DNA of 64,000 nt, taken from IMG/VR virus record IMGVR_UViG_3300012347_000364, positions 158,826-222,825 of that record; one strand, given 5' to 3'. The stretch is from a virus (taxonomy: Duplodnaviria > Heunggongvirae > Uroviricota > Caudoviricetes). The notes beneath the pieces were generated by a model. That model was not told the origin of the DNA. It made no database searches and saw nothing but the letters and a program-made list of their open reading frames with translations. Position 1 is the stretch's first letter; every line of letters begins with the position of its first letter. Positions 1,427 through 63,707 of this stretch are shown in pieces. The position numbers and the translations under genes are program-made.

Positions 1427-4018
1427 ATGGCCGGAAATAAAATCCAATTAAAACGCACCAGCGTTGCTGGTCGCGTTCCAAGTAACCTCGATGTAGGCGA
1501 GTTAGCAATTAACTTAGCAGACAATCGACTGTTTACTGCCGATGGTTCAAACACAATCATCGACGTTCACGGCCAAAGTCTCAACACAACGGCTAACGTA
1601 ACCTTCCGTGACGGCGCCTTTGCTAACATTACAGCAAATGTTATTGGCGCAACGACTATAACAGGCAACGTAGACTGGTCGTATATTACATCAAAGCCAG
1701 ATCTAAAGATCGACATAACTGGTGATGTAACAGGCAACAACACTTTCACTGATCTTGCCAACGGATCTATTAATGTTACGCTCCCCAACACAGCAGTAAC
1801 AGCAGGCACGTATGGTAACTCATCAGCAATACCAGTAATTACGGTAGACGGCAAAGGTCGTATAACCTCAGCAACAACAAACACCGTAGCTGGCGTTACT
1901 GGATTTGCATACACAACTGCAAACAACACCCTTTCGATCACGACTGGTTCAGGATCGACGTATTCAGCTAACATCAACACTATTACCTCGCCAACGATTA
2001 CCAACGGTACGTTGAACGGTAATACTACAATTGCTGCAGTAATTGCCAACGGCACGGTTGGTGTAGCTGGCCAGATACTTACAACAAACGGTAGTGCGGT
2101 CTATTGGAATAATGCACCTGCTACTAGCCTAGATGCTGTTCTAGCTGTTGGAAATACAACTACAAAAGCATTGACTGTCGGCCCATTAACGGTTGGTACA
2201 GGAAACACTTCCTTAGGTAATACGACCATTACTGGATCTGCGAACGTAACTACAACGTTACAAGTCACAGGCGCAGCAACGTTTTCAAATACTGTTTCTA
2301 TTGCTGGTAATCTGACTGGCAGTGCTGCTAACGTAACTATCGTTGCGGGAAGCTTCTCAACCATTTTTGCTAATAATGGTTCAACTACCTTCCCGGGAGC
2401 TGTATCTGGCATCACAACTCTGTCGGCTGGCAATACATCTATTACCGGTAACCTGACGGTAACGAGTGGTACAACATCTCTAGGCAATACAGTAATTGCT
2501 GGTAATCTAGTTGTTACTGGTGCAACAACGTACGTCAATACTAACATATTCCAAGTCAGTGATAATATTATCACGCTTAATGCTGATGCTGCTGGAACGC
2601 CAACAGATAATGTTGGGTTTGAAGTAAATCGCGGAACATCTGCTAACACGTCACTGTTATGGGATGAGTCTATCGACAAATGGACGTTCACGAACGATGG
2701 AACGGCTTATTTTAAAATAGCATCCAACACTGATGTTGACACGGCTTATACTAATGCTATAGCATATGCTGCTTCTAACACATACGTAAACACTACGTTT
2801 GCTCCTCTAGCTGGTGCTGCATTTACCGGTAATGTCACGTTTAACGCTAATGTCACGTTTAGCAACACGCGCATTTCATCCAACGGCGGTGTTGGTACAG
2901 CAGGACAAGTTCTAACATCCGGCGGAGCGGCGGATGAGATGTATTGGTCGACTATCGTCAGCGGCAACTCATTTGGAAGAATTGCAGTTGCAGGTCAGAC
3001 TAACATTAGTGCGGATGCAGCAACTGATACATTAACGTTTGCTGCTGGTAATAACATTATCATTACTACTGACCCGAGTACTGATACTATTACGATTACA
3101 GCTTCGGGTGGCGGTGGTAATAACACGCTGTCGTCGCAGTTCTTTATTACATCGTATGAGACGTTTACGGCTAATGGTACTGCCACAACATTTACCCTTG
3201 CTCAAGAAGCAAAACACGAATATGCATTCGTAGCAGTAGATGGTTTAATACAGAAGTATTCTGATCATTACACATTCGACGGTACGTCTCTAGTTTTTGT
3301 AACTGCGCCTGTCAGTGGTGAAATTGTATCCGTATATCATATTGCAAATGATGAGCAAACGACCGAAACTACTGCGGCAATTGCTGCTATCGATACGTTC
3401 ACGGCTAACGGAACAAGCAACTCGTTTACGCTAAGCGTCGATGGTGCAGACAATACCACCCTTGTATTGGTGGATGGTCAGTTGCAGGTATATACAACCG
3501 ATTACACAATTAGCGGTACGACGCTTCAGTTTGATGCTGCCCCAACCGTTAATAGCAGTATTGCAGCTGTACACCTCAGCTCTACTGTATATGGTTATAA
3601 TATGTCTACCGATGCGTTCGTCGGTGACGGTAGCACTGCATCCTATACTACATCACGTAATGGTACTCAGTATAACTGTTTAGTGCTTGTAGACGGCATA
3701 GTTCAAAAATACACAACCGATTATACCTTTGCTGGTAATGTAATCACATTCAATGAAAATATAGGGTTAAATGAAGAGGTAGAAGTATTATTCTTCATCA
3801 ACTCACAAGCGAAGAAAACTAACTCACTTGCATATACTGGAAATGGGTCAAATACAGCGTTTACTTTGCCTTCAGCAACAGATGCTGAAAACATTCTAGT
3901 ATACGTAAACGGGTTATACTACCATCCCGGCGAAGATTATTACGTATCTGGCAATCAGTTATCTTTCTACACAGCGCCAATCAACAGTGCGAAGATTAGA
4001 GTCCGTCAGATCCGATGA
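1427..4018 (+). CDS. Tail-fibre/virion structural protein
   Basis: N-terminal IQLKRT..P..L.VGELAINLAD fibre-attachment motif; C-terminal repeats of the FTANG...F.L....V.VDG..Q....DY module. Confidence 0.8.
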   Translation: MAGNKIQLKRTSVAGRVPSNLDVGELAINLADNRLFTADGSNTIIDVHGQSLNTTANVTFRDGAFANITANVIGATTITGNVDWSYITSKPDLKIDITGDVTGNNTFTDLANGSINVTLPNTAVTAGTYGNSSAIPVITVDGKGRITSATTNTVAGVTGFAYTTANNTLSITTGSGSTYSANINTITSPTITNGTLNGNTTIAAVIANGTVGVAGQILTTNGSAVYWNNAPATSLDAVLAVGNTTTKALTVGPLTVGTGNTSLGNTTITGSANVTTTLQVTGAATFSNTVSIAGNLTGSAANVTIVAGSFSTIFANNGSTTFPGAVSGITTLSAGNTSITGNLTVTSGTTSLGNTVIAGNLVVTGATTYVNTNIFQVSDNIITLNADAAGTPTDNVGFEVNRGTSANTSLLWDESIDKWTFTNDGTAYFKIASNTDVDTAYTNAIAYAASNTYVNTTFAPLAGAAFTGNVTFNANVTFSNTRISSNGGVGTAGQVLTSGGAADEMYWSTIVSGNSFGRIAVAGQTNISADAATDTLTFAAGNNIIITTDPSTDTITITASGGGGNNTLSSQFFITSYETFTANGTATTFTLAQEAKHEYAFVAVDGLIQKYSDHYTFDGTSLVFVTAPVSGEIVSVYHIANDEQTTETTAAIAAIDTFTANGTSNSFTLSVDGADNTTLVLVDGQLQVYTTDYTISGTTLQFDAAPTVNSSIAAVHLSSTVYGYNMSTDAFVGDGSTASYTTSRNGTQYNCLVLVDGIVQKYTTDYTFAGNVITFNENIGLNEEVEVLFFINSQAKKTNSLAYTGNGSNTAFTLPSATDAENILVYVNGLYYHPGEDYYVSGNQLSFYTAPINSAKIRVRQIR

Positions 4019-57632: not shown

Positions 57633-57706
57633 ATCTCGGTAGTGTAATGGCAGCATACCAGTCTCCAAAACTGTTGGTCGGGGTTCGAGTCCCTGCCGGG
57701 ATGCCA
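57633..57706 (+). tRNA. tRNA-Trp(CCA) with 4-bp anticodon stem
   Basis: CCAGT-CTCCAAA-ACTGT (C27-U43 mismatch); U11-A24; GCCA. Confidence 0.88.
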
Positions 57707-61525: not shown

Positions 61526-61756
61526 ATGATGTATAAAGTAAAAGGTTCAGTAGTAACATTCGATGTAATGACATTGGATGAAGCGATGCATACTGCTAAG
61601 ATAATGAACGAGTTTGTGACTATCACAGGTCCGGAGTTTGAAGTCGTAGGCATGTTCGGTGTAGATACTGTTAAGGACGGTAAGTGTCCGGACGGTGTTG
61701 CATACGACTGGAATAAAGCATCTAGAATAGGTGCTCCAAAAAGAGTAAGAGCATGA
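61526..61756 (+). CDS. Hypothetical protein
   Basis: 76-aa ORF, ATGA-coupled to the next gene. Confidence 0.6.
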   Translation: MMYKVKGSVVTFDVMTLDEAMHTAKIMNEFVTITGPEFEVVGMFGVDTVKDGKCPDGVAYDWNKASRIGAPKRVRA

Positions 61757-61920
61757 AATCCCCAGTCTTCGGTGCGCGTGCCGGTAACGTCAAGCTCAGA
61801 GGTAAGAAGACAAAGTTGATGTCGTGCAAGTGTTGCCACATGATCAACTGTAAATGGGAACATCGCTTTAAACAAGCAGAAAAAGAAATCAAGGAGAGCT
61901 CTAATGAAACGAGTAATTGA
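61753..61920 (+). CDS. Small basic Cys-containing protein (55 aa)
   Basis: MKSPVFGARAGNVKLRGKKTKLMSCKCC...; overlaps both neighbours. Confidence 0.5.
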   Translation: MKSPVFGARAGNVKLRGKKTKLMSCKCCHMINCKWEHRFKQAEKEIKESSNETSN

Positions 61921-62581
61921 GATTCGAGCCGCTGAAGGCGGAGAAGACAGTAAGTTGTTTGTGACCGATTTAGCACAAGCATACCAACGTTTAGGAACGA
62001 AGTTCGGCTGAACTACCCGCCTGATAGATGTACGTCTTGGCGAGTGTAGTTTAGAAGTTCAAGGCGCAGATCTATCCGGCTTAGATAACGAGCCAGGAGG
62101 ACACCGTATTCAGCGTGTACCTCCAACAGAACGTAAAGGTCGCGTTCATACAAGTACAGTCACTGTTGCCGTAATCGATGGTGAAAATAAGTACCAAACA
62201 TCCAACATCAAAGACTCTGACCTACGAGTCGAATGGTACTCTGGTACTGGCGCTGGTGGTCAACACCGTAATAAGCATCAGAACAGCTGTAGAATCACCC
62301 ATATACCATCGAACACTGTCGCGACGGCACAATGCCGCAGTAGACAGAATAGTTACAATGAAGCGATGGCTTCTATCCGCAGCCGTGTTGACTTTTCCAA
62401 CGAGATGCGTTATAATCAGAGTGTAGCGATCGATAGAAAGCTTCAAGTTGGTTCTGGTATGCGTGGCGACAAAATGCGCACTTATCGATTCCAGGATGAT
62501 GTTGTTAAAGATCACCAAACCAATCGATCTGCTAGTGTCAAGAAAGTGCTAGCGGGTAATTTTAATTTATTGTGGAGCTAA
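61904..62581 (+). CDS. Class I peptide chain release factor (RF1-like, no domain 1) with in-frame UGA at codon 36
   Basis: AGGAG RBS; IEIRAAEGGEDS.LF...L...Y, TGA 62009-62011, then E.GGHRIQRVPPTERKGRVHTSTVTVAV, GTGAGGQH.NK..NS.RITHIPS, RSR.NS, GSG.RGDK.RTY.F..D.V.DH. Confidence 0.85.
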
Positions 62582-62582
62582 T

Positions 62583-63092
62583 ATGGAAACGATTCGTTGG
62601 ATCGAAAACATTGCTTGGGACGACTGTAAGAACGGCTGGCATATGGATGCTGGTCCCAATGCTATGTTGATTCAGATTATGGATCCATGTAGCACATTCC
62701 CTACTCCTAAGCGTGAGTTTAAGGAGGTCCATCAGTTTGAATTTCTAGACATTGAGGATTCGGACGTTAAGATGGATCCTAATATGGGAGAATTTGCAAT
62801 TACAGACGAACAAGCACAAAAACTTGTTGACTTATTGCAAAAAGCAAAAGACAATAGCATGAATGTGATCGTTCATTGCTTTGCAGGTATCTGCCGAAGT
62901 GGTGCTGTATGTGAGTTGGGTGTAATGCTTGGCTTCACGGCTACAGATCGTTACAGACAACCTAACCTCCGAGTCAAACACAAAATGATGAAGTGCTTGG
63001 GTTGGACTTATGACGAAGATGAAAAATCAGTCGGCACCGGTGGAAGCATCAGTGCCGGTGGGATTCTTATCCCTTATAAAGATATGGAGTAA
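62583..63092 (+). CDS. Cys-based (PTP/DSP-fold) phosphatase
   Basis: VHCFAGICRSGAV (CX5R) loop; F.D acid loop. Confidence 0.85.
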   Translation: METIRWIENIAWDDCKNGWHMDAGPNAMLIQIMDPCSTFPTPKREFKEVHQFEFLDIEDSDVKMDPNMGEFAITDEQAQKLVDLLQKAKDNSMNVIVHCFAGICRSGAVCELGVMLGFTATDRYRQPNLRVKHKMMKCLGWTYDEDEKSVGTGGSISAGGILIPYKDME

Positions 63093-63095
63093 TAT

Positions 63096-63707
63096 ATGTC
63101 AAACGTGTTCGTTGTAAGCGATACGCACTTCGGTCACGTTGGCGTATGTCGCTTCATGCAAAATGATGGAGTAACTAAACTCCGTCCCTGGGACAGTCCG
63201 GAAGAAATGGATGAGGCAATGGTTAAGTCTTGGAACGAGACTGTTGGCCCAAACGATAAAGTATATCATCTCGGTGATGTGGTAATTAACCGACGTGCTC
63301 TTAGCACTGTTGCAAGACTTAATGGTGACAAGGTCCTTATTAAAGGGAACCACGACATCTTCCGTCTTGAAGAGTATACTACATACTTCAGAGATGTTAG
63401 AGCGTATCATGTGATGAGTGGAATGATCCTCAGCCACATTCCGGTTCACGCCGATAGCCTTGCTAGATTTGGCTGCAACATCCATGGCCACCTTCACGCC
63501 AACCGTGTAATGAAGCCAATCGGTGTTGATGCTCGAACTGGTGTGGTAAAGTATGGCAATCAAATTGATCCTAGATACTTCAACGTCTCTGTCGAGCAGA
63601 TTGGTTTTAAGCCAATTGCCCTCGAAGAGCTCAAGAAGCGTATTATTGAGCAGGGTGGTGAAATATCTTTCCGTCAAGGAAATGGTTCAGCACCCGTTGT
63701 CATGTAA
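63096..63707 (+). CDS. Calcineurin-like metallophosphoesterase
   Basis: SDTHFGH, HLGD, GNHD, SH.P, HGHLH. Confidence 0.9.
   Translation: MSNVFVVSDTHFGHVGVCRFMQNDGVTKLRPWDSPEEMDEAMVKSWNETVGPNDKVYHLGDVVINRRALSTVARLNGDKVLIKGNHDIFRLEEYTTYFRDVRAYHVMSGMILSHIPVHADSLARFGCNIHGHLHANRVMKPIGVDARTGVVKYGNQIDPRYFNVSVEQIGFKPIALEELKKRIIEQGGEISFRQGNGSAPVVM

Follow-up and report, generated by a model that had tools for sequence, protein, structure and literature searches.

An in-frame UGA conserved at codon 36 of a short RF1-type release-factor gene in a T4-type phage and its relatives suggests programmed read-through

In the 64 kb that close a 222,825-bp viral record, which is complete and bounded by direct terminal repeats (IMG/VR record IMGVR_UViG_3300012347_000364, positions 158,826 to 222,825; this whole stretch of 64,000 nucleotides is hereafter referred to as the window), we studied a gene for a short release factor (RF) of the RF1 type that is broken at codon 36 by an in-frame UGA. 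Comparative evidence strongly supports the view that this is a functional, deliberately interrupted gene whose expression would need in-frame read-through, and we consider it likely that the full-length factor is made only by programmed decoding of that UGA as tryptophan. The interruption is taken as deliberate because the stop is strictly conserved, both sides of it are under selection, sister lineages carry TGG and no conserved restart codon follows. The phage is of the T4 type, with gp23-like head, gp20-like portal, sheath and gp46-like genes, and its capsid protein is nearest to those of Stenotrophomonas phage DLP6 (75%), Sinorhizobium phiM12-type phages and Methylophilales phages.

The open reading frame (ORF) begins with an ATG at position 61904, runs for 35 codons to the TGA (62009-62011), continues in the same frame for 189 codons and ends with TAA (62579-62581). 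With the stop read through for the search, Pfam matches were obtained on either side of it, namely PCRF (residues 4-88) and RF-1 (residues 100-204). The NCBIfam RF1 model (NF001859 / TIGR00019) was matched at positions 107-333 of 347 only, from which we conclude that the product is of the RF1 type but has no domain 1; its score of 189 bits lies below the RF1 equivalog cut-off of 400, and the PrfH model (TIGR03072) gave 35.2 bits against a cut-off of 166.65. The codon-reading loop QRVPPTERKGRVHTS fits the RF1 PxT pattern QRVPxTE..GR.HTS, and GGQ is found together with the fold of domains 2-4. The reading head of RF1 comprises the helix tip GG(E/D), Q70, PxT, H82 and T83, and all of these elements are conserved across the phage family. 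In the protein alignment, the UGA coincides exactly with the Trp of 'RKGW' in T. maritima RF1. An AlphaFold2 model built from 54 family members (predicted local distance difference test score, 93.6) resembled ribosome-bound RF1 with a template-modelling score of 0.91 and a root-mean-square deviation of 1.8-2.1 Å; in this model, helix 14-33 precedes the stop and strand 37-44 follows it, so that residues 1-35 would be integral to the predicted fold. No second RF-1 domain gene was found in the 222.8-kb genome, the UGA-interrupted one being the sole member. These features are best explained if the gene encodes a working class-I release factor of the RF1 type, composed of domains 2-4 only and provided with a UAA/UAG reading head and GGQ; with its gated synthesis included, we hold the whole reading to be probable. 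A preliminary description of the window, made from the sequence alone, had reported the two same-frame segments with intact PPT and GGQ motifs, RF homology on both sides of the stop, the absence of domain 1, the usual aromatic residue or Trp at the UGA and the A that follows it, all of which agree with the analysis presented here.

The preliminary description had also proposed to look for the TGA in homologues and to compare selection on its two sides, and both comparisons speak for a functional gene. A scan of IMG/VR yielded 287 related stretches, whose best loci have TGA at codon 36 in 80 of 80 cases (67-76% identity), with one internal stop per gene, always this TGA, in 81 of 81 genes; a second scan gave 33 more distinct genes, down to 46% identity and from phages of up to 524 kb, all with TGA. 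The distinct related phage genes (46-77% identity) number 105, and 105/105 keep exactly one in-frame TGA at codon 36, the true terminal stop being TAA in 103 of them. Pairwise ratios of nonsynonymous to synonymous substitution rates (dN/dS) were 0.125 for codons 1-35 and 0.106 from codon 59 to the end, which indicates that both halves of the gene are under purifying selection; the gene thus joins a conserved in-frame stop to purifying selection on either side, the combination by which programmed read-through is recognized. An ATG, GTG or TTG occurs within 12 codons of the stop in only 15 of the 105 genes, with no conserved restart codon, and the gene in the window has none of the three for 118 codons past the stop.

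The interruption is hidden in public databases. All close-family database proteins that were looked up translate with TGA=W only, and those that appear full-length, with Trp at residue 36, are gene calls under genetic code 4 on short contigs; the neighbouring genes on these contigs end at TGA, which is therefore also a stop there. Public calls (entries P0002-P0121) are either such code-4 translations (Trp36) or fragments of 183-186 amino acids that begin past the stop, and database searches therefore conceal the in-frame TGA. No near DNA match was found among deposited phage genomes, where the best protein match had 37% identity, and the family is known from metagenomes only. Taken together, the notion that the UGA would act as a built-in gate, and is not damage, is strongly supported.

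More distant relatives without domain 1 alternate at codon 36, with TGG in P0123 (48% identity), P0128 (44%) and P0141 (43%), and TGA in P0130 (41%), a lineage for which the search of viral contigs yielded weak partial matches only. P0126 and P0140 have Ala and Leu at this codon and uninterrupted frames. In the P0125 lineage (46% identity; L099:551-1222), the Trp codon is TGG and an in-frame TGA is found four codons downstream, i.e., the stop has moved rather than been lost. All TGA genes fell in one clade of the maximum-likelihood tree (support 92/98), which comprises a 23-row subclade with TGA throughout and a smaller subclade where TGA is interleaved with TGG and Leu; the TGG lineages P0123 and P0128 lie within the same clade. 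Cys was never observed at codon 36 in the homologues, which have Trp, Leu or Ala instead. Because TGA and TGG interchange and the codon aligns with the Trp of RF1, the inserted residue would most likely be tryptophan.

The RNA past the stop is also constrained. Third-position entropy is 0.19-0.47 bits in codons 37-42 versus about 1-1.9 bits upstream, and the proportion of synonymous differences is 0.42 in codons 37-58 versus 0.68-0.75 elsewhere. RNAalifold placed a stem at 62024-62037/62062-62075, and folding of the window's sequence by itself gave the same stem at minimum free energy; over 63 distinct sequences, 93.7% of its cells are paired (32-47% in slid controls) and 7 of its 13 pairs change on both sides (84 cells). 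Three conserved G-C pairs lengthen this stem to 62019-62080, giving 16 bp that start 7 nucleotides (nt) past the stop, with 94% of cells paired, 7 covarying pairs and 26-44% pairing in slid controls. On a tree built without the stem region, five of the pairs changed state 16, 12, 5, 17 and 11 times, and the covariation is therefore not one inherited event. Furthermore, a 66-nt segment beginning 6 nt past the stop was within the gene's 10% most stable in 61 of 71 representatives (mean z -2.8), and in many divergent members a different stable structure occupies the place of the main-clade stem. No Rfam family was matched within 61850-62250 at E up to 10, the selenocysteine insertion sequence (SECIS) included.

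The stop itself stands in a context that differs from that of ordinary stops. The base after it (+4) is A in 81, G in 22 and C in 2 of the 105 genes (A in the window) and U in none, versus TGAT at 29 of 63 genuine TGA stops in the phage genome, and the codon before it encodes Gly in 101 of the 105. A weak stop context is thus accompanied by a covarying 3' structure, which is absent or different in some divergent members, and we regard the stem as a candidate stimulator of read-through. Of the read-through switch put forward in the preliminary description, the deliberate interruption by UGA has held, on account of the conserved stop, the selection, the TGG sisters and the lack of a restart; the hairpin placed there at 62008-62054 has not, since only 54% of the cells of its outer helix are paired among the 63 relatives and its CGCC/GGCG helix, although conserved, displays zero covariation, the conserved stem being 62019-62037/62062-62080. 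A pseudoknot combining CGCC/GGCG with the long stem was set aside on geometry, as a 2-nt loop cannot cross a 13-bp helix.

Among the 39 transfer RNA (tRNA) genes of the phage there is no tRNA-Sec and none with a UCA anticodon, and the candidate decoder of the UGA is a tRNA-Trp(CCA) with an unpaired 27:43 position and A24 (Table 1). Unpairing of 27:43 lets tRNA-Trp(CCA) read UGA, as shown in vivo for Escherichia coli C27A, with G43U cited as experimentally active, and G24A is the Hirsh suppressor change (PMC13092985). Of 31 distinct tRNA-Trp(CCA) genes in related phages, 8 (26%) have a 27:43 mismatch, versus 63 of 611 (10%) of the other tRNAs of these phages; among the same 31, U11-A24 occurs in 20 and C9 in 2. 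Further, a 523-kb relative (G010; L214:1501-1577) encodes a type-I tRNA of the opal-suppressor kind, whose anticodon is UCA, whose discriminator is G73 and whose 27:43 position is mismatched (C27·A43); the same genome carries a UGA-interrupted RF gene. A link between the phage tRNA-Trp and UGA decoding is plausible on these grounds.

According to the reading we favor, ribosomes would start at the strong AAGGAG site and reach GGC-UGA-A, where host RF2 and tRNA-Trp would compete at codon 36, and a near-cognate tRNA-Trp(CCA), of host or phage origin, would restore the Trp of RF1. The weak context, with a Gly codon at -1, usually a purine and never U at +4, and the conserved spacer, would tilt the outcome to read-through, which in the main clade only would be further favored by the stable stem-loop 7 nt downstream. 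Read-through would yield a Trp36 protein with the complete RF1 reading head, and the amount of factor made would depend on how RF2 and tRNA-Trp compete at a single codon. The product would release peptides at UAA and UAG and be inactive at its own UGA.

A further step, which we put forward tentatively, is that the UGA and the 3' stem-loop may work as a trans-acting sensor of termination capacity, a structure-stimulated and tRNA-tuned read-through homeostat. The preliminary description had likewise proposed that full-length factor would be produced only under weak UGA termination by host RF2 or with abundant phage tRNA-Trp, as a read-through counterpart of prfB control. If RF2 became limiting during infection, ribosomes would dwell at the UGA and tRNA-Trp would win; the decoding tRNA would perhaps come from the phage and owe its tuning to an unpaired 27:43, A24 or a UCA anticodon; and the phage RF1-type factor would take UAA and UAG stops, freeing RF2 for UGA and closing a feedback loop. 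Such a homeostat, if true, would be part of the phage's translation-maintenance toolkit along with a near-complete tRNA set and a transfer-messenger RNA (tmRNA). The alternative is a fixed attenuator, in which a constant low leak at the UGA keeps a potentially harmful extra RF scarce and neither RF2 nor tRNA-Trp is sensed. This is a possibility that we would also entertain with reserve: the comparative evidence fits it as well as it fits the sensor, and some lineages manage with TGG or Leu at codon 36. Nevertheless, a weak ribosome-binding site would do the same, yet the strong AAGGAG is retained; TGA, a single transition away from TGG, is kept in 105/105 genes together with a covarying RNA structure; and any leak at UGA necessarily depends on the levels of RF2 and tRNA-Trp. 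The gate may thus sense these levels rather than being a fixed attenuator.

Several observations weigh against the proposed mechanism. An RF1-type product should not read UGA, and direct autoregulation as in prfB, the gene for RF2, would not be available; any feedback would have to be indirect, e.g., by sparing RF2 the UAA stops. The P0103 lineage (L095:702-1370; 58% identity, 27% guanine plus cytosine) has a second TGA at codon 190, the conserved Arg of 'GDK.RTYRF', a misfit with simple decoding as Trp; an identical P0103 protein occurs on nine of the contigs read, and these represent three samples or more. The register of the stem is specific to the main clade, divergent members forming mostly 1-8 of the 13 pairs, and 10 of the 71 representatives, which are among the 25 more divergent and mostly AT-rich or distant, are without an unusually stable structure after the UGA. 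As for the tRNA, its features are not universal, with a Watson-Crick 27:43 pair in 21 of the 31 related-phage tRNA-Trp(CCA), and anticodon stems of 4 bp are found in 8.9% of bacterial tRNA-Trp genes, many with A24 or C9 (PMC13092985). Since A24 and such stems are fairly common in bacteria, the features of the phage tRNA-Trp are suggestive, not diagnostic. Finally, in a complete 46-kb relative with the UGA gene (G028), the tRNA model, which also detects other tRNAs, matched nothing, and a phage tRNA is therefore probably not obligatory.

Among the remaining explanations, the least improbable, although still very unlikely, is a split protein, in which a 35-residue peptide would assemble with a separately initiated C-terminal fragment. 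Gene callers do give products of 183-186 amino acids from a GTG in some relatives; nevertheless, the window's gene has no start codon over the 118 codons mentioned above, few relatives have one near the stop (15/105), and the TGG lineages make a single chain. A bypass like that of T4 gene 60, with take-off of peptidyl-tRNA-Gly at Gly35, landing at Gly46 and 11 codons skipped, would suit a T4-like phage in which a conserved Gly codon abuts the stop, another lies 30 nt downstream and RNA structure is near. We give it little credence, as the take-off and landing codons differ in several relatives (e.g., GGA/GGC, GGC/GGG and GGC/GGA) instead of matching around a non-coding gap, and residues 36-45 align with strand 2 of RF1 and are translated in the TGG lineages.

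General decoding of TGA as Trp (code 4) in the phage or its host, or a code switch late in infection, could be suggested by the UGA-reading features of the phage tRNA-Trp, by the relative with a tRNA(UCA), and by the known recoded phages with RF1. Stop-codon usage excludes a general code change, in agreement with the preliminary description: among 252 non-overlapping ORFs of at least 90 amino acids, 152 end in TAA, 86 in TGA and 14 in TAG. An initial scan for other read-through genes was too noisy and missed the RF gene; it was replaced by one scored by codon usage, which sought two same-frame segments, both scoring as coding, with one stop between them. Over the complete 222.8-kb genome, the RF gene was the sole case with TGA, no pair was found with TAG, and the nine cases with TAA all proved to be ordinary adjacent genes, a start codon lying no more than four codons away. 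The neighboring genes in relatives also stop at TGA, and the tmRNA of beta type and the capsid relatives point to proteobacterial hosts. Such hosts use the standard code, and the chance that recoding accounts for the interruption is slight.

Insertion of selenocysteine by means of a SECIS-like hairpin past the UGA is still more improbable. The spacing of the stem-loop after the UGA is not unlike that of a bacterial SECIS; nevertheless, Cys or Sec homologues, a SECIS and Sec machinery, which mark bacterial selenoproteins, were not found, given that homologues have Trp (TGG), Leu or Ala and never Cys, the Rfam search was negative and the phage is without tRNA-Sec. Moreover, the residue at codon 36 is structural, not catalytic, and the hairpin sequence is unconserved in divergent members. 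A lone in-frame stop usually marks a pseudogene, but that the TGA is a sequencing error or assembly damage is excluded by its conservation in 105 distinct genes from many samples, with dN/dS of about 0.11-0.13 on either side and the catalytic and reading motifs intact.

The features of the gene and its candidate decoder are collected in Table 1.

Table 1. Positions in the window of the release-factor gene, its putative read-through elements and the candidate decoding tRNA
Feature	Position	Strand	Remarks
Phage tRNA-Trp(CCA), candidate UGA decoder	57633..57706	+	C27·U43 (4-bp anticodon stem), U11-A24
AAGGAG Shine-Dalgarno (SD) sequence	61891..61896	+	7 nt 5' of the start codon; read from the sequence
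Whole RF1-type release-factor gene without domain 1	61904..62581	+	225 codons, internal UGA counted; ends in TAA
Codons 1-35, encoding strand 1 and helix 1 of RF domain 2 with the AEGGED helix tip	61904..62008	+	dN/dS 0.125; model strand at residues 2-9, helix at 14-33
In-frame UGA, codon 36, at the conserved RF1 Trp; putative programmed read-through site	62009..62011	+	TGA in 105/105 relatives; Trp alignment; TGG in P0123, P0128 and P0141
7-nt spacer ACUACCC, synonymous variation suppressed	62012..62018	+	Third-position entropy 0.19-0.47 bits vs about 1-1.9 upstream
Conserved stem-loop, candidate read-through stimulator	62019..62080	+	5' arm 62019-62021 and 62024-62037; 3' arm 62062-62075 and 62078-62080; 24-nt apical region
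PPT tripeptide (RF1-type PxT stop-codon reading motif)	62120..62128	+	QR[VI]PPT in 102/105 relatives
GGQ catalytic motif	62255..62263	+	GGQ in at least 103/105 relatives; invariant in the family alignment

The surroundings of the gene vary. In the window, a 55-codon ORF (61753-61920, + strand) overlaps the RF start codon; it matches neither Pfam nor PHROG and has a stretch rich in Cys and His, CKCCHMINCKWEH. A 74-codon ORF (2789-3013) also overlaps the RF start in a relative (L092). Directly 3' of the RF gene are a gene for a dual-specificity-phosphatase-like protein (62583-63092, + strand; weak Pfam matches) and one for a calcineurin-like phosphoesterase (63096-63707, + strand; phrog_547). 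In other lineages the RF gene adjoins a gene for RNaseH_like (PF04308) or lies near a gene for a fused kinase (AAA_33), phosphoesterase and T4 RNA ligase 1. Outside the window, at about 113469-113949 of the genome, the phage has a permuted two-piece tmRNA for which ARAGORN gave the tag peptide ANDSKFALAA, and which scored 137.6 bits with the Rfam model beta_tmRNA (gathering score 84) and 147.3 bits with tmRNA_permuted; it adds to the translation-maintenance genes of the phage, and its beta type hints at a betaproteobacterial host.

The phage also has an amber-suppressor-type tRNA with a CUA anticodon (Rfam tRNA, 47.8 bits) at genome positions 130-204, i.e., past the end of the window and after the tRNA-Val of the terminal repeat. 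This tRNA is mismatched at 27:43 (A27·A43), its variable loop is short, and it lies about 1.6 kb downstream of the RF1-type gene, whose product would compete with it. The whole-genome coding scan revealed no in-frame TAG target for it, and a search for its sequence in five large relatives gave nothing convincing; one relative (G027) has two tRNAs with CUA anticodons (L215:1190-1265 and 1501-1577).

Eukaryotic viruses provide well-documented cases of programmed stop-codon read-through, but to our knowledge few examples are known in bacteria and their viruses beyond phage Qβ; likewise, we know of no 3' RNA structure besides SECIS for which promotion of read-through on bacterial ribosomes has been demonstrated. 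In Qβ, read-through of the coat-protein UGA by tRNA-Trp gives A1, a minor capsid protein. The arrangement described here is similar in that low-level UGA read-through by tRNA-Trp would be programmed in a bacterial virus, but Qβ extends the C-terminus of a complete protein, whereas the stop of this phage falls within the N-terminal part of an enzyme, at a conserved Trp, with a covarying stem behind it. PrfH and ArfB are release-factor homologues without domain 1; the phage protein is, like them, a GGQ factor lacking that domain, but unlike them it retains the full codon-reading head of RF1 (PxT, Q70, T83).

The closest cellular comparison is with prfB, in which a programmed +1 frameshift at an in-frame UGA near the start provides autoregulation (PMC12421855; PMC5009743). 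Both are class-I RF genes broken early by a conserved UGA, at codon 26 in prfB and codon 36 in the phage, and in both the output would be tied to the efficiency of RF2 termination at that codon. In contrast to prfB, the frame is unchanged in the phage gene, where homology continues in frame 0, not +1; there is no CUU UGA C slippery site and no conserved internal SD like the one that lies 3 nt upstream in prfB, the context being GGY UGA R with variable upstream bases; a 3' stem-loop stands in place of the 5' SD stimulator; and the product is of the RF1 type, not expected to recognize UGA, so that feedback would be only indirect.

Among viruses, the class-I RF gene of Mimivirus (R726) and Megavirus (mg280) needs read-through of an internal UGA, for which a viral tRNA-Trp with a Hirsh-like adenine in its D-arm has been proposed as the decoder (Jeudy et al., 2012; PMC3521657). 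The phage shares with it a virus-encoded RF gene with a UGA to be read through and a viral tRNA-Trp as candidate decoder. Nevertheless, the Mimivirus factor is of the eRF1 type and belongs to an amoebal virus, also needs a frameshift, and has a UGA-C context and no described 3' structure, whereas the phage factor is a bacterial RF1 without domain 1 in a tailed phage. In the TGA-recoded Jade phages, RF1, a suppressor tRNA(UCA) and a tryptophanyl-tRNA synthetase constitute a 'code-change module' (Borges et al., bioRxiv 10.1101/2021.08.26.457843). As in those phages, a phage RF1 is here accompanied by a tRNA that may read UGA as Trp; Jade phages, however, recode many late genes, with the module itself in the standard code, whereas in this phage only the RF gene has an in-frame UGA and TGA is a common stop. 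Full-text searches yielded no description of a UGA-interrupted family of short phage release factors.

If the reading holds, the phage arrangement mirrors the Mimivirus release-factor case in a different virus realm. With more than 100 natural variants of one site, a covarying stem, TGG controls and tRNA-Trp variants, the family would make the rules of UGA read-through in bacteria testable. In practical terms, public databases annotate its members wrongly, either as fragments or as code-4 proteins from short contigs. Our results also suggest that many large phages may carry, and tightly control, a termination factor of their own.

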